From Eubacteriales bacterium (GTDB taxonomy: Bacteria > Bacillota > Clostridia > Lachnospirales > JAVBJY01), in NCBI GenBank assembly GCA_031546735.1, contig JAVBJY010000103.1, positions 1 to 58,813 on the forward strand: a stretch of 58,813 nucleotides of DNA, written 5' to 3'. Below, one piece after another: positions 42,167-50,128 of the stretch. The notes under the pieces were generated by a model, which did not search any database, was not told where the DNA came from, and was given only the letters and a program-made list of their open reading frames with translations. The position numbers and the translations under genes were made by a program. Every line of letters begins with the position of its first letter. The first letter of the stretch is position 1.

Positions 42167-43381
42167 ATGAAAACAATTGAAGGAAGCATTGCATCGCCCC
42201 GGGGCTTTCAAGCGACCGGCGCACATATCGGGCTAAAAAAAGCATCAAAAGATTTATGCCTCATCGTCAGTGACGTGAAGGCAGTCGCCGCAGGCTGTTT
42301 TACGACCAACATCGTAAAGGCCGCGCCTGTCATGTGGGACATGAACGTCATCGGAAATGACATCAAGGGCATCGTGGTCAACAGTGGCAACGCCAACGCC
42401 TGCACAGGCGACCAAGGCATGAAAGATACGGAGACAATGGCCGATACCTTTGCCCAATTGATCGGGTGCAACAAAGAAGAAGTTTTGGTTTGTTCCACAG
42501 GGGTCATTGGCGTCAATCTTCCCATGGAAAAATTGACAGCCGGTATGGCGTCTACGTTTCCGTCGTTAGGCTCTACCCTTGACGATGGGCTAAACGCGGC
42601 AAGAGCGATTATGACGACCGACACATTTATGAAAAACATCTGCGTACAGACCGAAATCGGCGGCAAAACCGTGACGATTGCCTCAATGGCAAAAGGCTCT
42701 GGCATGATTCATCCGAACATGGCGACGATGTTAAGCTTTGTGACAACAGACGTTTCCATCGACCGCTCGTTGTTACAAAAGGCATTAAAAGACGTCGTGT
42801 CGGTTACATATAACATGATTTCTGTAGACGGCGACATGAGCACCAACGATACCATCTTGGCATTGGCCAACGGCATGGCAGACAACGCGACGATTACAGA
42901 AGAAAACGACGACTATAAAACATTTGTGGACGCGCTTTTGTTTGTAACCAGAACACTGGCAAAAGAAGTGGCGCGAGACGGCGAGGGCGCGACGAAACTG
43001 CTCGAAGTTTGCGTGAACGGTGCCAAAACGTATGCAGACGCGGCTACCATCAGCAAGTCGGTTGTCTCCTCTAACCTATTTAAGGCGGCGTTGTTTGGCG
43101 AAGATGCCAACTGGGGTCGGGTGCTTTGCGCCATGGGCTATTCAGGGGCAAGCTTTGACCCGTCACAGGTGACCATCGCCTTTAGAAGCGAAGCCGGAAC
43201 CATCGCCTTGATGGAAAAAGGCACACCGATTGCCTTTGACGAGGCAAAAGCGTCCGAAATTTTAGCGCTAAAAGAAATTTTTGTCGACATACAATTGGCA
43301 GAAGGGAGTGAATCCGCGGTCGCATGGGGTTGTGATTTGACATATGACTATGTTAAAATTAACGGCGACTACAGATCGTAA
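42167..43381 (+). CDS. argJ: Bifunctional ornithine acetyltransferase / N-acetylglutamate synthase
   Basis: 404 aa. Autoprocessing site context PNMATMLSFVTTD. Confidence 0.9.
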   Translation: MKTIEGSIASPRGFQATGAHIGLKKASKDLCLIVSDVKAVAAGCFTTNIVKAAPVMWDMNVIGNDIKGIVVNSGNANACTGDQGMKDTETMADTFAQLIGCNKEEVLVCSTGVIGVNLPMEKLTAGMASTFPSLGSTLDDGLNAARAIMTTDTFMKNICVQTEIGGKTVTIASMAKGSGMIHPNMATMLSFVTTDVSIDRSLLQKALKDVVSVTYNMISVDGDMSTNDTILALANGMADNATITEENDDYKTFVDALLFVTRTLAKEVARDGEGATKLLEVCVNGAKTYADAATISKSVVSSNLFKAALFGEDANWGRVLCAMGYSGASFDPSQVTIAFRSEAGTIALMEKGTPIAFDEAKASEILALKEIFVDIQLAEGSESAVAWGCDLTYDYVKINGDYRS

Positions 43382-43400
43382 ACAGATGATGGGTGAGAAT

Positions 43401-44261
43401 ATGCAAGAATACATTCAAAAAGCAGAAACGTTGGTTGAGGCGTTGCCATACATTAACGCCTTCAAAGGCATTACCGTTGTGATCAAATATGGCGGCAGTG
43501 CCCTCATCAATGAAGAAGTAAAAAGCACCTTAATGAAGGACATCGCCCTGATGAAATTTGTCGGGTTTAAGCCAGTTGTCGTGCACGGCGGCGGCAAAGA
43601 CATCTCCAACATGTTGGCGCGTTTAAACATACAATCTGAATTTAAAGACGGCTTGCGTGTGACAGACGCCGAAACGATGGAAGTGGTCGAGATGGTGTTG
43701 GCGGGCAAGTTAAACAAAGCCATCGCCACCGAATTGTGCCTGCACGGCATCAATGCCGTCGGCATCAGTGGCAAGGACGCAAGGCTTTTGCAAGTCGAAA
43801 AAATTTGCCCCAATGGTGAGGATATCGGGCTCGTGGGTGAAGTCAAATACACCGACACTACCTTAATCAAGACACTGCTTGATAACGATTTTGTGCCCGT
43901 CATTTCTCCGATTGGGGTTGACGAGTTTGGCACCAGCTATAACGTCAACGCAGACTATGCGGCTGTGGCTGTCGCCGGTGCCCTTGAAGCCGGAAAGCTT
44001 GTCTTTATCACAGACGTGGCGGGTGTGCTAGAAGACGTAAACGACCCCGCGAGCGTCATCTCTGTGATGAAGGTGGCAGACGTGAAGCGGATGATCGACG
44101 AGGGCACGATTACCGGCGGCATGATTCCGAAGGTCGAATGTTGTGTCGCAGGCGTAGACGCAGGCGTTCGAAACGTCCATATCTTGGACGGACGCATTGA
44201 GCACTGCTTAATTTTAGAAATCTTTACCCAAAAAGGAATCGGGACATTAATCGAGAGGTGA
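43401..44261 (+). CDS. argB: Acetylglutamate kinase
   Basis: Start taken at MQEYIQKAETLVEALPYI. VVIKYGGSA motif. Confidence 0.85.
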   Translation: MQEYIQKAETLVEALPYINAFKGITVVIKYGGSALINEEVKSTLMKDIALMKFVGFKPVVVHGGGKDISNMLARLNIQSEFKDGLRVTDAETMEVVEMVLAGKLNKAIATELCLHGINAVGISGKDARLLQVEKICPNGEDIGLVGEVKYTDTTLIKTLLDNDFVPVISPIGVDEFGTSYNVNADYAAVAVAGALEAGKLVFITDVAGVLEDVNDPASVISVMKVADVKRMIDEGTITGGMIPKVECCVAGVDAGVRNVHILDGRIEHCLILEIFTQKGIGTLIER

Positions 44262-44349
44262 TTAACAGTTGATAAAAAGTTATAAAAAGCTACATGATAC
44301 TGTTGAATAAATTATATTTTTTATATAGAATAAAATCGAGGTGAAAACC

Positions 44350-44623
44350 ATGAGATATTATTCTATACACGAGTTTTGCAAGCTAATAAACCGAACGCCA
44401 CAAACATTAAGAACATGGGATAAGAACAGAAAACTAAAACCCGACCATTTAGGCAGAATTATATGATTGCAAAATTGAGATCGCTGATCATACCGAAAAA
44501 ACAGAAGAGCAAGAGTTAGTGAAGGATTTAGTTCAAATCATAACAGTTTTTAGTTGTAAACTACAAGGCAAACGAGCCAACAAGGCTAAAAAGATGATTA
44601 AGGAGTTGACCTCCAATGATTAA
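44350..44623 (+). pseudogene. tnpA: IS607-type serine recombinase (tnpA) remnant: HTH and C-terminal tail only, catalytic domain deleted, frameshifted
   Basis: 44350-44466 encodes MRYYSIHEFCKLINRTPQTLRTWDKNRKLKPDHLGRII*, a MerR-like HTH typical of IS607 TnpA. A +1 frame (44453-44623) encodes ...CKIEIADHTEKTEEQELVKDLVQIITVFSCKLQGKRANKAKKMIKELTSND*, the typical C-terminal tail. About 150 aa of resolvase core are missing. The stop overlaps the tnpB ATG (ATGATTAA). Confidence 0.7.
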
Positions 44624-45854
44624 ATCGATAAAGATAAAGCTACACCCAAATCATAAGCAACAAACACAAATGTTTAGAACACTAAATTGCTCTCGCTATG
44701 CTTATAATTGGGCTATCGCCACTCAAATGCAGAATTTCAAAGATGGCAATAAGTTTATCGGTGAGTTTGAACTTCGGCGGATGTTCACAGAACATAAAAA
44801 AGAAAACGAATGGCTCTACGCAGTAAGTAACGATGCCTTAAAACAATCAATCAAAGACGCCTGTACGGCATATAAAAACTTTTTTGATAAGCAAAAGAAA
44901 AAAGGATATGAGAAATACACAGACAGACAAAAGCAACATGCAAAAGAAACGGGCAAACTATTAACAGTTTATAACATGCAAGGACATCCAAAATTCAAGA
45001 AAAAACAAGAAAACAAAGTAAAGTATTACATGGATACAGACAAAATAGAAGTTACGAGTAGCCATGTGAAGCCAGAAAAAATAGCGGATAGCAAACGCAG
45101 GAACAGGTTAAAAGCGAATTTTGTAAAGCTTGCAGAGAGCGACAGAATACCAGTTAACACGAAGTATATAAATCCACGTATTGGTTTTGATGGGATAAGC
45201 TTTTGGTTGAGTTTAGTCATTGAAACAGAGAGTAAAATAGAACCGCCAGCAACCGAAGAAGGCATAGGAATTGATATAGGCGTGAAAGAACTAGCCATAT
45301 GTTCAAATGGTTCGGTTTATAAAAATATTAACAAAACTAAAATCATAAAGAAGTTAAAGAAAAAACAGCGTAGATTGCAACGCCGAGTATCAAGAAAATA
45401 CTTGAAAAATAAAAAAGGAGAGAGTTACTGCAAAACAAGCAATATTATAAAGAGTGAAAAACAACTTTTAAAAATAAATCAACGACTAACGAATATTCGT
45501 CATAACCACTTACACCAAACAACGAGCGAGATCGTGAAAACCAAGCCATCTTACATCGTTGTTGAAGATCTAAACGTGAAAGGTATGATGAGCAACAGAC
45601 ATTTAGCAAAAGTGATACAGGAACAATGTTTTTATGAATTTTACAGACAGATGGAATACAAAACAAAATGGAACAATATAAAATTCATCGAAGCACCTCG
45701 CTTTTATCCTTCAAGCAAAACATGCTCACAATGCGGTAAAATTAAATTGGATTTGAAGTTAAAAGACCGAATTTACAAATGTGACTGTGGCCTTGAAATA
45801 GATAGAGATTTAAACGCCAGTATCAATTTGTGCAGCTACGGATTAGCAATATAG
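44616..45854 (+). CDS. tnpB: TnpB (OrfB) RNA-guided endonuclease, apparently intact
   Basis: 412 aa. RuvC-I GIDIGVKELA, RuvC-II VVEDLNVKGM, zinc ribbon CSQCG...CDCG, RuvC-III IDRDLNASINL. Confidence 0.85.
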   Translation: MIKSIKIKLHPNHKQQTQMFRTLNCSRYAYNWAIATQMQNFKDGNKFIGEFELRRMFTEHKKENEWLYAVSNDALKQSIKDACTAYKNFFDKQKKKGYEKYTDRQKQHAKETGKLLTVYNMQGHPKFKKKQENKVKYYMDTDKIEVTSSHVKPEKIADSKRRNRLKANFVKLAESDRIPVNTKYINPRIGFDGISFWLSLVIETESKIEPPATEEGIGIDIGVKELAICSNGSVYKNINKTKIIKKLKKKQRRLQRRVSRKYLKNKKGESYCKTSNIIKSEKQLLKINQRLTNIRHNHLHQTTSEIVKTKPSYIVVEDLNVKGMMSNRHLAKVIQEQCFYEFYRQMEYKTKWNNIKFIEAPRFYPSSKTCSQCGKIKLDLKLKDRIYKCDCGLEIDRDLNASINLCSYGLAI

Positions 45855-45991
45855 CCAAAACAAGTATTGTTAATGTGTACCGATACGTTAGTCGGGAATT
45901 TAAGCCTTCGGAGTGTTATAGCAAACGAGAGTAGCGTTAGCAAAATCGGACACGATGAAAAAGGAATGAAACATAAAGGTTGTTATAACTT
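45700..45991 (+). ncRNA. Predicted TnpB omegaRNA (scaffold overlapping the tnpB 3' end, plus guide); boundaries inferred
   Basis: The position is the one established for TnpB omegaRNAs (3' part of tnpB through the right end). Small hairpins are present (ccga-tacgttag-tcgg at about 45888-45903). The sequence GGAATGAAAC (45962-45971) resembles, from memory, the 3' end of Cas12f crRNA repeats (GGAAUGCAAC). No covariance model was run. Confidence 0.35.
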
Positions 45992-46020
45992 TTTATAAGT
46001 TTTCAGTAACGGTGATTGAG

Positions 46021-47181
46021 ATGGATACATTTGAAAGAGGATTAAACGTCGTCATGAACACATACAACAGGTTTCCCATCGTGCTGGAAAAAGGATGCGG
46101 CATGTATGTGTATGACGAGAACGGAAAAGAATATTTAGATTTTGTGGCTGGCATTGCTGTTAATTCGTTGGGGCATGGCCACGAGAAATTATGCAACGTC
46201 ATCGCCGAGCAGGCAAAAAACATGATCCACTGCTCCAACCTATACTGGACGAAGCCCCAAATCGAATTTGCCGAAAAGCTAGTGGCAGACACTTGTTTTG
46301 AGAAGGTGTTCTTTTGCAACAGTGGTGCCGAGGCCATCGAAGGGGCGCTGAAGCTCTCTCGAAAATATCGGAAAGAGGGCAAAAAAGAAATCATCACCAT
46401 GTTAAACTCGTTTCATGGCAGAACCTACGGTGCCATTACGGCCACAGGGCAAGCCCACTACCAAGAAGGGTTAGACCCACTACTCCCTAACATATCGTAC
46501 GTGCCGTTTAACGATTTTGACGCACTGGCCGCCGCCGTTACGTCCGATACATGCGCAATCTTTATCGAGCCCATACAAGGCGAAGGCGGCATACGCCCCG
46601 CCAACAAAGAATACTTGCAAAAGGTGCGTGCCCTTTGCGACGAGAAAGACATTTTGCTTGTATTTGACGAGATCCAATGCGGGTTCGGCCGCACAGGCTA
46701 TTTATTTGCGTACCAATATTACGACGTGGCACCCGACGTCTTGACCATTGCCAAAGGCACCGCGGGCGGCGTTCCAATCGGCGTATTGCTCGCCAACAAA
46801 AAAACCGCCTCTGTGTTCAAGCCGGGTGACCACGCGTCAACCTTCGGCGGCAATCCATTGGCGACAGCCGCGGCGAACTGCGTCATCGATGAGTTAAAAG
46901 GCGGGCTACTTGAAAATGTAAAAGTGCAAGGGCAATATTTGACCACCAAGCTTCAAGAGCTGATGGCGAAGCATGAACAGATCATCGACGTCAGAGGATG
47001 CGGTTTGATGCAAGGCATCGAGTTGACCGTGCCGGTTGCTCCTATTATCGCCAAGTGCATCGACAATGGCTTGCTTCTTTTAAATTCCGGCGCGAAGATT
47101 CTAAGATTTGTCCCTTCGTTTATCGTGTCGAAGGAAGATATCGATAAGGCGATGGGGATTTTGGATGAGGCGTTGGCGTAA
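46021..47181 (+). CDS. argD: Acetylornithine aminotransferase
   Basis: ATG at 46021 behind GGTGA; GTG at 46012 is the track start. Class III aminotransferase with PLP-lysine context DVLTIAKGTAGG. Confidence 0.85.
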   Translation: MDTFERGLNVVMNTYNRFPIVLEKGCGMYVYDENGKEYLDFVAGIAVNSLGHGHEKLCNVIAEQAKNMIHCSNLYWTKPQIEFAEKLVADTCFEKVFFCNSGAEAIEGALKLSRKYRKEGKKEIITMLNSFHGRTYGAITATGQAHYQEGLDPLLPNISYVPFNDFDALAAAVTSDTCAIFIEPIQGEGGIRPANKEYLQKVRALCDEKDILLVFDEIQCGFGRTGYLFAYQYYDVAPDVLTIAKGTAGGVPIGVLLANKKTASVFKPGDHASTFGGNPLATAAANCVIDELKGGLLENVKVQGQYLTTKLQELMAKHEQIIDVRGCGLMQGIELTVPVAPIIAKCIDNGLLLLNSGAKILRFVPSFIVSKEDIDKAMGILDEALA

Positions 47182-47201
47182 GGTTTTTGATCTAGTGGTT
47201 T

Positions 47202-47247
47202 AGAGAAGGGCGGCTTCCCTGTGAATGGAAAGCCGCCCTTCTCTTTA
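47202..47247 (+). terminator. argD terminator; member of the GGGCGGCTTCCC hairpin family
   Basis: 15-bp stem agagaagggcggctt / aagccgcccttctct (47202-47216 / 47230-47244) followed by TTT. Confidence 0.75.
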
Positions 47248-47283
47248 CGTGCCGCGGTAAGAATGCACGACTGATTTTTTTTG

Positions 47284-47432
47284 TTACGATAACTGATCCA
47301 AAAATTCTTCCAAAGATAGTCCAGCTTGCTGCAAAATAGATTTTAAAGTTCCTTTTGCTATTTCATCATGTAAGGAGATAATCACGATCCTTGTTGGAGA
47401 ATTATTTTCTTCATTAACATATTTTGAACCCT
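47284..47432 (-). pseudogene. hicA: HicA-like toxin remnant (C-terminal two-thirds, no start codon)
   Basis: Hand translation: KGSKYVNEENNSPTRIVIISLHDEIAKGTLKSILQQAGLSLEEFLDQLS*. This resembles the HicA core (..KGSH......HP.KE...GTLRSILKQAGL). The N-terminal dsRBD-like helix and an initiator codon are absent, and the frame overlaps the hicB stop. Confidence 0.45.
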
Positions 47433-47639
47433 TTATATTGCAATCTCCATTGTCGTAATAAATGTTTTCTTGGTCATTGGAGCGTCAATACAGTCCTCAA
47501 AATAAAGCGCCAGCGCCTCTTTTAAATTGGCCATTGCCTCATCCAATGTCTTGCCTTGAGATGCAACATCATTTTCCAAGCATTTCGAAACATACCAATC
47601 ATCTTCTTGCTGAATTACAGCCGTTATATGATAACTCAT
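47433..47639 (-). CDS. hicB: HicB-family antitoxin-like protein
   Basis: 68 aa. YHITAVIQQEDDWYVSKCLENDVASQGKTLDEAMANLKEALALYFED is the typical HicB N-terminal (RNase H-like partial) fold pattern. Confidence 0.65.
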   Translation of the reverse strand: MSYHITAVIQQEDDWYVSKCLENDVASQGKTLDEAMANLKEALALYFEDCIDAPMTKKTFITTMEIAI

Positions 47640-47683
47640 AAATGTACCGCCTTTCTTTTCTAAATCTTTATCTAAGAACCTGT

Positions 47684-47872
47684 TTAATATCTCGCTTTTA
47701 ATGGATTTTGGAGCAAATTTTTTGTTGTGTAAGAAAGCGGCGACCTGATCAAATAATCTTTTGTAAAATCCATATGCAATATGAACATTATGCGGCTATA
47801 AATATCTCTAGCAAGTCTTTGCCATTCTCCTTCACCATATTCATTATAAAAATCTTTTGCTTCACTGTCTAT
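47684..47872 (-). pseudogene. N-terminal stub of a class I SAM-dependent methyltransferase (no ATG, truncated)
   Basis: Hand translation: (I)DSEAKDFYNEYGEGEWQRLARDIYSRIMFILHMDFTKDYLIRSP...*. The FY.EY.E.EW.RL....EF..T pattern is recalled from the N-termini of a methyltransferase family. The SAM-binding GxGxG part is missing. Confidence 0.3.
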
Positions 47873-47923
47873 ATAATACCTCTAAATATGGCGATTTGCC
47901 TTAACTGCCTATTGTGCTCTTAG

Positions 47924-47989
47924 AAATTAACTGAGGTCGGCTAAAAAAATAGCACGTACTGAATGATACATGCCGACCTTAGTTAATTT
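47924..47989. repeat. Long perfect-type hairpin (18-bp stem, 30-nt loop)
   Basis: aaattaactgaggtcggc (47924-47941) pairs with gccgaccttagttaattt (47972-47989), with one G-T pair. It is followed by a second nested structure closed by cagaacga (47991-47998) / tcgttctg (48083-48090). Confidence 0.6.
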
Positions 47990-48180
47990 TCAGAACGAGA
48001 GCTCGGGTTCCTATGGGGAATCAATTATTTTTCCCTTAAAATAGGGATTTGTGGCAAATTTTTTTACCACCGCGTAGTGGTTTCGTTCTGCTTATAACGG
48101 AAAGCTATATCGAGCCAATCTGACCATTCAGTATATAGATAATGACTATAGTGTTAAATTTACACCATGCCCGAAAATGC

Positions 48181-48741
48181 TTATTCGTTACCATAAAGAG
48201 ATTTAGCACGAACGAGGTTTATTGAGTTATTTGAAGGTATCTCTAAAAAATATTCTAGTTGCCATATTTGAGTTTTTTTAGCTTGATAGCTTGTAGGTTT
48301 GTCCCATGGTGGATAAACACGAATTGCTCGTTTTCCATCTTCGCCATTATTTGATACTATACCTTGATGAAACAAAACTGTTTTTGGAAATATAAATTGC
48401 CCAAATTCATTACCTTTTCGGGTACTTATAACAAATAAATCAGCTGGGTTTGATATATCATATGGTTGAATCGCCTCACCATTGATTCTTTCCCACAAAG
48501 TCACAAATTGCCCGACCTTGGTAGGAGTTATTTTGGCAACACGAAATCTAACATAACTGGAGTTTAAGTAAAATATATATGCTCCATACTCAGCATTCTG
48601 TTCTTCAAGTATTGGTTGTGAGCATAAAAATTTACAAGGAGTATAAACAAGCTCATTACTTGCAAGTAGGTCGCTATGAATTGTGTCGGTGGAAGTCCAT
48701 AAATTTTGGTTAATAACGTTTCTTATTTCTTTTTCATCCAT
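48181..48741 (-). CDS. MepB-family protein (function unknown)
   Basis: 186 aa. AKITPTKVGQFVTLWER motif recalled from the MepB family. Confidence 0.55.
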   Translation of the reverse strand: MDEKEIRNVINQNLWTSTDTIHSDLLASNELVYTPCKFLCSQPILEEQNAEYGAYIFYLNSSYVRFRVAKITPTKVGQFVTLWERINGEAIQPYDISNPADLFVISTRKGNEFGQFIFPKTVLFHQGIVSNNGEDGKRAIRVYPPWDKPTSYQAKKTQIWQLEYFLEIPSNNSINLVRAKSLYGNE

Positions 48742-48997
48742 CTACTTTTTCATCCTTTATTACATATATATTTAAAGTTCTATAAGATTAACATAATAAA
48801 TTAAACAACAGTGTGCCATATTATAAAATATAAATTTTGTGCCATGCCAACATTTTTTTATCATTTTACATTATCACCATAACGTTGGTAGTCTCTATTT
48901 TCTGTTGCTTCCCATTATATAAACAATCATTTTTTTCTTATAAACGTGAAAAGCGTTTCATTTAATTGTAGAGCAGCTCCAACTGAAGTTTGAACTT

Positions 48998-50128
48998 CTA
49001 AAAGATTGTTTGCAATAGCCAATATAAGGCTAGCAAAATTAGTAGAAAACCAATATTATAAATTGTAAATTTTTTAAAGTATAGACCAACTTGTTTTTTA
49101 TACACATTGGCAAACAGTTTATAGGAGATGACACTAGCCATAGAAGCAATGAGCGTTCCCACCCCTCCAATGTTGACTCCAACCAGCAGCCGACTGGCGT
49201 CATTTGTAAATTTGGAAAGCAAAATAGCGGCGGGCACATTGCTAATAAGTTGACTGGATATTACGGAGGTCAGCACCGCATTTCTGCCCATCAGTTGTTG
49301 TAACAAGTTTTCAACAACTGATATACCTGACAAATTACCTACAAAAATGAAAATAACAAAGAAAGTAAATAACAAGGGAAAATCTATTTTTGTTAACAAT
49401 TTTTTATCTACTATTAAAGTGACCAGCACTATAATTATTGTGGTTACAGTATAGGAAATTATTGAGAATACGGTCATGACAGACAGAATAAACAGAACAC
49501 CATAAAGTGCAATTTTATTTTTACTAAGGTCTTGCTTTGCTAACTCATTTATTGGCGGCAGATAACTATTTTTCACAAAAAAACAACAGATGACCAAACA
49601 TATTGCGCCAGTTAATACATAAGGAAGTATTGTGAACACAAAAACGCCTAGACTCATGTTATAATGGGAGAAAATATATAAATTCTGAGGATTCCCCACA
49701 GGCGTAAGGCTAGACCCAATATTGGCAGCTATTGTTTGTAAGACAACAACATACGCTGTCCACTGCTCCTGTTGGCACATAAAAAGTACCGATATAGCAA
49801 TAGGCACTAGGGCAATTAATGCCACATCATTTGTCATAAACATGGATGTTAAAAATGCACCAAATACAAGAAAAAAAACGAGAGAACGAGTGCTTCGCAA
49901 ATGAGATAGTGCTACCCTTGAAACTGTATCCAATAAGCCCTCTCGTTCCATTCCCTTAATGGAAACCATCAAACAAAACAGGCAAGCTAGCGTTTTCCAA
50001 TCTATATACTGTATATAATTACCCGACGGTGGCACCATAAATATGGATACCACAGCACAGATGGTTGCTATAATTAACACAGGTTCTTTTTCAAACCAGA
50101 AAACAAAATACTTTTGAATAAGCTTCAA
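48998..50128 (-). CDS. ArsB/NhaD-superfamily (citrate-transporter-like) anion permease
   Basis: Polytopic membrane protein. Start moved to a TTG (50128) 6 nt after GGAGG. Substrate unknown. Confidence 0.5.
   Translation of the reverse strand: MKLIQKYFVFWFEKEPVLIIATICAVVSIFMVPPSGNYIQYIDWKTLACLFCLMVSIKGMEREGLLDTVSRVALSHLRSTRSLVFFLVFGAFLTSMFMTNDVALIALVPIAISVLFMCQQEQWTAYVVVLQTIAANIGSSLTPVGNPQNLYIFSHYNMSLGVFVFTILPYVLTGAICLVICCFFVKNSYLPPINELAKQDLSKNKIALYGVLFILSVMTVFSIISYTVTTIIIVLVTLIVDKKLLTKIDFPLLFTFFVIFIFVGNLSGISVVENLLQQLMGRNAVLTSVISSQLISNVPAAILLSKFTNDASRLLVGVNIGGVGTLIASMASVISYKLFANVYKKQVGLYFKKFTIYNIGFLLILLALYWLLQTIF

Follow-up and report, generated by a model that had tools for sequence, protein, structure and literature searches.

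The closest described counterparts of the locus analysed here are ISFba1 and its relatives, insertion sequences (ISs) of the IS607 family in which a TnpB nuclease is accompanied by a RAGATH-18-type right-end element RNA (reRNA, or omegaRNA; Ren et al., Cell Res 2024, PMC11061315). The ISFba1 TnpB has catalytic residues D194, E290 and D371, its reRNA has 13 + 37 nt before the core, and the transposon-adjacent motifs (TAMs) published for the family are AGGAG and GAGGG; 80% of loci have both tnpA and tnpB, and 30% of those TnpAs are pseudogenes (PMC11061315). For a second system, the CboIStron/IS607 elements, a GG core dinucleotide for TnpA and an omegaRNA scaffold ending in ...CGG have been shown experimentally (Zedaveinyte et al. 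2024, bioRxiv 10.1101/2023.11.20.567912). Here we describe a 1754-bp foreign segment on the + strand between the arginine biosynthesis genes argB and argD, within a 58,813-nt window (the whole stretch of DNA analysed, contig JAVBJY010000103.1, whose + strand positions are used throughout; only these 58.8 kb of the genome were covered) from an uncultured gut-type Clostridia lineage. The segment is an IS of the IS607 family and has the RAGATH-18 reRNA/TnpB make-up reported by Ren et al. 2024 (PMC11061315), and we put at roughly 80% the probability that it is a single copy of such an element left stranded in place, probably an ordinary and recent one. The features of the locus, from left to right, are these.

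43344-44261, + strand: argB (acetylglutamate kinase), Pfam AA_kinase E = 3.8e-47; the true start is probably near 43401
44254-44258, + strand: AGAGG, a target or TAM-like motif adjoining the left end and ending in the GG core dinucleotide
44259-44340, + strand: left end (LE) of the element, from alignment with L001/L002 and more than 20 other relatives, inverted repeats and a promoter scan
44303-44331, + strand: tnpA promoter, TTGAAT-17-TAGAAT, from the promoter scan
44341-44466, + strand: N-terminal tnpA remnant, a 41-codon open reading frame (ORF) with MerR-like helix-turn-helix (HTH) residues 1-38 and then a frameshifted stop
44453-44623, + strand: C-terminal tnpA remnant, equivalent to residues ~150-204, in a different frame from the N-terminal remnant
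44616-45854, + strand: tnpB, 412 aa, Pfam HTH_OrfB_IS605, OrfB_IS605 and Cas12f1-like_TNB
45868-46012, + strand: reRNA scaffold, with a 5' flank (45868-45904), RAGATH-18 core (45905-45966) and 3' flank (45967-46012) ending ...UUUCAGUAACGG
46013-46032, + strand: predicted guide segment TGATTGAGATGGATACATTT, placed by analogy with the family, whose guides begin immediately beyond the ...CGG of the scaffold
46021-47181, + strand: argD (acetylornithine aminotransferase), intact, Pfam Aminotran_3 E = 5.7e-120, profile positions 5-403 of 403

The borders of the element were set by those sequences of the LE and of the right end (RE) that are conserved among its relatives (loci L083-L162, L001 and L002), together with the GG found at both junctions (44257-58 and 46011-12). 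In the alignment of relatives the left border lies directly after GG and the right border ends in GG, giving 44259-46012 here; an initial annotation of the sequence had recognized about 1.75 kb foreign to the arg operon, which is borne out, and had placed it at 44262-46011, which is not. The G+C content of the element (0.32-0.36, ~33%, versus 0.45-0.53 in the arg genes) steps sharply at both borders. The LE holds a conserved AACAGTT motif and sub-terminal TTATAAAAAG repeats (44272-44296) that are inverted relative to those in the RE (45972-45996), the sub-terminal TTATAA repeats are intact, and the promoter, already noted in the initial annotation, has a conserved position in the relatives. 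Because the longer sequence GGTGATT is present at both junctions (44257-44263 and 46011-46017), the border is uncertain by a few nucleotides. The TGATT beyond the GG is common to the two junctions in this copy only, L001 and L002 having other bases at the start of the LE, and is best read as coincidence or local homology and not as a duplication of the target made during transposition. CboIStron likewise has the GG core dinucleotide at each junction and lacks a target-site duplication; the present element differs from it in having no group I intron (no Rfam intron family match), a different TAM and a dead tnpA.

Two other interpretations of the borders were rejected. A TTGAT at 44269-73, which is the TAM of ISDra2, does not mark the left border: TTGAT is absent from the relatives, in which that border directly follows the GG. 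Nor is the inverted repeat of 14-25 nt at the borders a native intergenic hairpin split by the insertion, as relatives at unrelated sites carry these repeats within their conserved LE and RE.

The tnpA gene survives as two remnants. Compared by tblastn with the intact MerR-plus-Resolvase TnpA of L002, which precedes a TnpB 62% identical to that of the window, 44341-44454 corresponds to residues 1-38 (27/38 identical, 71%, E = 8e-14) and 44453-44527, in another frame, to residues 148-172. The first of these is the MerR-like HTH ORF that had been described as stopping early; its match to Pfam MerR_1 is weak (E = 6e-4) and does not reach the family cut-off. A further short ORF (44519-44623) falls inside the longer frame-2 match to the TnpA C-terminus, intact TnpAs have almost the same C-terminal tail (ELVKDLVQIITVFSCKLQGKRANKAKKMIKELTSND here), and this remnant overlaps the start of tnpB by 8 nt, as in intact elements. 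Alignment with ten full-length TnpAs (203-222 aa) shows that the remnants represent residues 1-39 and ~150-204 of a protein of ~204 aa, such that an internal deletion of ~0.33 kb has removed residues ~40-150, including the GYCRVSSxKQ catalytic serine motif; this element has no intact serine recombinase (MerR-like HTH plus resolvase core). The earlier proposal that the catalytic resolvase core is missing is thus correct, although about 109 residues are absent rather than about 150. Since the remnants reveal descent from a complete tnpA, the element is a defective member of the IS607 family rather than a non-member and, having lost the catalytic serine with residues ~40-150, is unable to excise or transpose on its own, in agreement with what had been proposed. 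Each remnant has kept its own reading frame open and closely resembles intact relatives, so that tnpA shows no secondary decay; together with a G+C content that has not shifted towards that of the host, this fits the recent decay intermediate that had been offered as one of two readings of the locus.

In contrast to tnpA, tnpB is full length, and the protein aligns end to end with 29 homologues. The RuvC residues D220, E317 and D398, which correspond to D194, E290 and D371 of ISFba1 TnpB, and the zinc-binding cysteines C370, C373, C389 and C391 all fall in invariant columns of that alignment; the 412-aa TnpB with its RuvC and zinc residues had been recognized correctly, and neither substitution of the catalytic triad nor truncation of the ORF was found. 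The best solved relative is the ISFba1 TnpB 8IAZ (E = 1.1e-67), whose deposited chain has Ala at the D371 position and is read as a D371A mutant. The catalytic site is thus intact, and RNA-guided, TAM-dependent cleavage of double-stranded DNA by this TnpB-reRNA complex is predicted from family membership. The window TnpB is nevertheless distant from anything sampled: its closest counterpart among 5.8 billion clusters is only 72% identical, such that this is a new sequence member of an already described family, and an exact look-up of the window TnpB and of P0019 in the contig index gave no match. It departs from the consensus at 8 of 141 strongly conserved columns. Decay was considered as their cause and dismissed: of the eight, those at positions 146, 169 and 201 are deviant in the closest relative P0002 too, with different residues, and the count lies inside the range of the family (0-14 among relatives, 11 in P0002).

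An insertion of ~28 aa (KKKGYEKYTDRQKQHAKETGKLLTVYNMQG) is present in the TnpB at residues ~93-122 (window 44892-44981). It is common only to a subset of the clade (P0002-P0019, P0111 and P0118) and is absent from ISFba1-like proteins of 386-390 aa (those of 386-387 aa among them), which sets the 412-aa protein described here apart from them.

The region 3' of tnpB contains the guide RNA, which is not mentioned in the initial annotation. A core begins exactly 50 nt after the tnpB stop and matches Rfam RF03064 (RAGATH-18) over the full model (1-71) at 71.9 bits (E = 1.4e-13; the gathering score is 44.9), the sole Rfam match in the whole window. The 50-nt spacing is that of the ISFba1 layout (13 + 37 nt), and as in that system a conserved 3' flank runs up to the RE, the last part of the scaffold being the RE of the element, which ends at 46012; the flank is 46 nt long here and 64 nt there. 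This 3' flank, GGAATGAAAC...TTTCAGTAACGG with the terminus GTAACGG, is conserved in more than 30 relatives, which diverge immediately after it. Support for the RNA comes from the covariance-model match, the minimum free energy fold of the region being uninformative (z = -0.65). The scaffold end ...CGG agrees with that of CboIStron, and since the segment following it is ordinary flank, the guide is simply flanking DNA. At this locus it comprises the spacer, start codon and first codons of argD (46013-46032); it has one match in the window, and no second guide target was found there.

The insertion site can be reconstructed closely. The GG crossover dinucleotide forms the end of AGG (44256-58), the final sense codon of argB, and the TGA stop of argB (44259-61) is formed by the first three nucleotides of the element. 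Translation of argD starts with ATG at 46021, 8 nt beyond the element, and the GTG at 46012 belongs to the element itself; the predicted N-terminus, MDTFERG, compares with MNTFEKG in L005, a related metagenome-assembled genome (MAG). When the element is removed in silico the sequence reads ...GAGAGG followed directly by TGATTGAGATG..., with the junction ATCGAGAGG/TGATTGAGATGGATACATTTGAA (also modelled as ATCGAGAGG/TGATTGAGATGG), which places the argB stop 5 nt ahead of the argD ATG. L005 has a comparable arrangement, reading attgaaaggTGAtagcATGaacacatttgaa. Among 80 arg loci retrieved, argB and argD were both found on ~70; most of these have a gap of 4-70 nt between the two genes, and tnpB is present between argB and argD in none of the ~70 (nearest ArgB 73-74% identical). 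The check for an empty junction, proposed for related strains, thus gives an empty junction in these more distant relatives, and because the empty-site model parallels L005 and the ~70 junctions have no tnpB, the insertion is genuine and specific to this lineage. This also bears on whether the contig might be a chimera joining a low-G+C mobile element to an arg operon. The sharp G+C steps and the lack of a sequenced close relative of this organism could be taken that way, but both junctions fall exactly at conserved element termini, each with its GG, and once the element is taken out the junction is collinear, nucleotide for nucleotide, with those of related genomes, an outcome that a chimera would not give at both ends; we regard an assembly artefact as scarcely credible.

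A few of the related arg loci have larger spacings between argB and argD in which tnpB is not involved, i.e. 5.3 kb in L013/L014 (a Candidatus Epulonipiscium MAG) and ~1 kb in L053 and L081. The ArgB of the window is 73-74% identical to that of uncultured Clostridia MAGs, its best genome matches, and ArgB, ArgC, ArgJ and ArgG are all singleton clusters at 90% identity.

The AGAGG preceding the element is likely to have been the original Shine-Dalgarno (SD) sequence of argD. What remains to argD is GGTGAT, composed of the terminal GG of the element and the flanking TGAT, for which the calculated anti-SD pairing is -9.9 kcal/mol, compared with -14.0 kcal/mol in the empty-site model and -10.1 kcal/mol for the SD of tnpB itself. 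The repeated GGTGATT has a consequence at each side: the first bases of the element, TGA, restore the argB stop exactly, and the terminal GG with the flanking TGAT leaves argD with part of an SD. This could be fortuitous, or the insertion could have survived because neither gene was damaged.

A position between an SD and its start codon is not peculiar to this copy. The left flanks of more than 20 relatives end in the SD-like RGAGG, GGAGG or GAAGG, comparable to AGAGG here and to the published TAMs. At 22 of 34 distinct relative sites the RE is followed at 4-11 nt by a start codon that opens a co-oriented ORF of 50 aa or more; for comparison, 14.7% of host positions drawn at random and 21.7% of those following any RRAGG pass the same test. 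Several of the ORFs following the RE begin like genuine N-termini of housekeeping enzymes. Landing between an SD-like motif and a start codon, co-oriented and within an operon, thus appears to be the normal behaviour of this clade and, because of the SD-like left flanks and the 22 of 34 sites before a start codon, the target preference of the family would explain the position in front of argD. The literature searched gives the TAMs, and no link of these to ribosome-binding sites was found in it.

The loss of tnpA is likewise a common state in the family. Intact relatives are 2010-2170 bp long, and derivatives of 1722, 1685, 1643, 1598 and 1433 bp keep the LE, tnpB, reRNA and RE without part or all of tnpA; L120 has an internal deletion similar to that of the window copy, and about one-third of relatives have no working tnpA. 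This recalls the frequent pseudo-tnpA of ISFba1-type elements, which also share gut Firmicutes hosts with this one; tnpA is internally deleted here rather than frameshifted. It also recalls the solo or non-autonomous tnpB elements (IS1341-type and tnpA-less IS200/IS605/IS607), of which L087, L105, L110, L118 and L106/L109/L112 are examples among the relatives, and which similarly keep tnpB, guide RNA and ends without a working transposase. They differ from the present element in that tnpA pieces remain here on both sides of the deletion, making its two-gene IS607 origin directly visible. L106, L109 and L112 are the same 1722-bp tnpA-deleted element at the same site in several metagenome samples (L107 and L123 share the right flank), and their tnpB differences are mostly non-synonymous (5:3, 7:3 and 6:1), whereas those of mobile lineages are mostly synonymous (e.g. 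3 non-synonymous to 24 synonymous). The counts are tiny, and this hints at relaxed constraint on tnpB once tnpA is lost.

A rival reading is that the copy is still mobile, with an intact cognate IS607 element elsewhere in the genome providing the TnpA that excises and re-inserts it in trans, and with TnpB-reRNA keeping a homing role here. Its LE, RE, both GG dinucleotides and sub-terminal repeats are intact, TnpB has not decayed, shortened forms recur among relatives, and minimal IS607 derivatives without tnpA were excised by TnpA supplied in trans in E. coli (bioRxiv 10.1101/2023.11.20.567912). However, each shortened relative has its own breakpoints and size, which suggests independent deletions in situ rather than a propagating deleted lineage; no second copy, spare RE or tnpA was found elsewhere in the 58.8-kb window; and the closest TnpB in the clusters searched is only 72% identical. 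We therefore consider trans-mobilization unlikely and favour a copy stranded by deletion. As to the proposed search for a parent element, BLAST of the element against plasmids and phages yielded only family-level relatives (66-75% identity) and no near-identical donor; the search for further copies returned none from the window.

One of the relatives (L163) lies on the Enterocloster phage CB457P1 (OP172753.1, 88930-93438), as two ORFs of 221 and 391 aa that are both annotated as hypothetical; its DNA is 74.5% identical to the element over half of the query, and the phage host belongs to the gut Clostridia. Such a phage could plausibly carry elements of this kind between gut Firmicutes. Bacillus cereus-group plasmids and Staphylococcus phages likewise contain related tnpB genes.

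The second reading offered in the initial annotation was that the locus encodes a retained or domesticated RNA-guided protein wired into a biosynthetic operon, for example a regulator or processing factor gating argD translation. The nearest described precedent is TldR (Wiegand et al. 2024), a TnpB-derived protein found with a guide RNA beside a host gene; TldRs are reported to be derivatives of TnpB that have lost nuclease activity and serve as RNA-guided transcription factors (PMC10705468). Several features could be accommodated by such a role: TnpB is known to process its own transcript into omegaRNA (PMC10278001), the argD translation start falls within the guide segment, the copy has no means of leaving unaided, and tnpB is open with argD intact. 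In TldR systems the transposon ends have been lost, guides match host promoters, and the loci are conserved with their partner genes. Here, by contrast, the RuvC triad D220/E317/D398 is intact, both ends are kept, the guide is flank as in every mobile copy, and the insertion is absent from every related arg operon retrieved. Moreover, the arrangement is the default of the clade and needs no special explanation, tnpA loss is common, and the mostly non-synonymous tnpB differences in L106/L109/L112, tiny as these counts are, hint at relaxed constraint. Domestication is thus not upheld, and we judge it very improbable. In a related reading, each read-through transcript of an element of this clade would carry the reRNA scaffold fused to the translation start of the host gene and, in a copy unable to leave such as the one at argD, TnpB binding or processing of the fused RNA could set ArgD output as an early step towards an RNA-guided protein co-opted for post-transcriptional regulation; we consider this very improbable.

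The reading of a stranded IS607 copy can be put together as follows. A serine-recombinase TnpA would have inserted the element at the GG within AGAGG, the SD of argD, where it overlaps the last sense codon of argB, and the later deletion within tnpA would have stranded the copy. As tnpB, the scaffold and both ends are present, the TnpB-reRNA complex is probably still made, and its guide would match only an empty argB/argD junction carrying AGAGG. In CboIStron, too, the TAM is the target motif of the transposase and TnpB cleaves the empty donor joint, an activity that is predicted here. The occupied site would be spared because AACGG stands in place of AGAGG, like the discrimination at position -3 by CboTnpB (ACGG versus GAGG here, TCGG versus TGGG there). 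The nuclease would therefore be without a target until an empty allele appeared in the cell or was brought into it. The element is co-oriented with the operon and, because a simple scan found no + strand terminator within it, transcripts started at the arg operon promoter and at the promoter within the element are likely to read through into argD, in keeping with what had been suggested, and argD is likely to be translated from the weakened but usable GGTGAT. Such a copy would be expected to decay, and nothing points to a host function.

Several considerations weigh against this interpretation. A TnpB with no sign of decay fits a recent deletion and continued selection equally. The collections hold no same-species genome against which to set the age and fixation of the insertion. 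Expression of tnpB, the reRNA and argD is deduced from the DNA, and the exact TAM from the flanks of relatives together with the published TAMs of cousins. Finally, an intact tnpA beyond the 58.8-kb window could mobilize the copy in trans.

Downstream of argD there is an ORF for a HicB-like/DUF7387 antitoxin (47433-47639, - strand), and beside it a 33-aa remnant (47284-47385, - strand) that matches only the C-terminal half of a HicA toxin. Both lie in a low-G+C block (47200-50000, 29-40%, mostly 33-36%) that also holds a MepB-like gene, and look like a degraded toxin-antitoxin pair in a second foreign block.

The significance of the locus itself is small, i.e. one more defective copy of a known type of element, and it shows an operon tolerating a 1.75-kb insertion 8 nt before a start codon. 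Of wider interest is the clade's apparent targeting of ribosome-binding sites. If this holds across the thousands of known loci, it would explain why such elements are found inside operons, and guides would match highly conserved translation-start regions, favouring homing into naive alleles. It would also raise the question of how downstream genes deprived of most of their SD are still translated, and is the one lead from this locus that is worth following.

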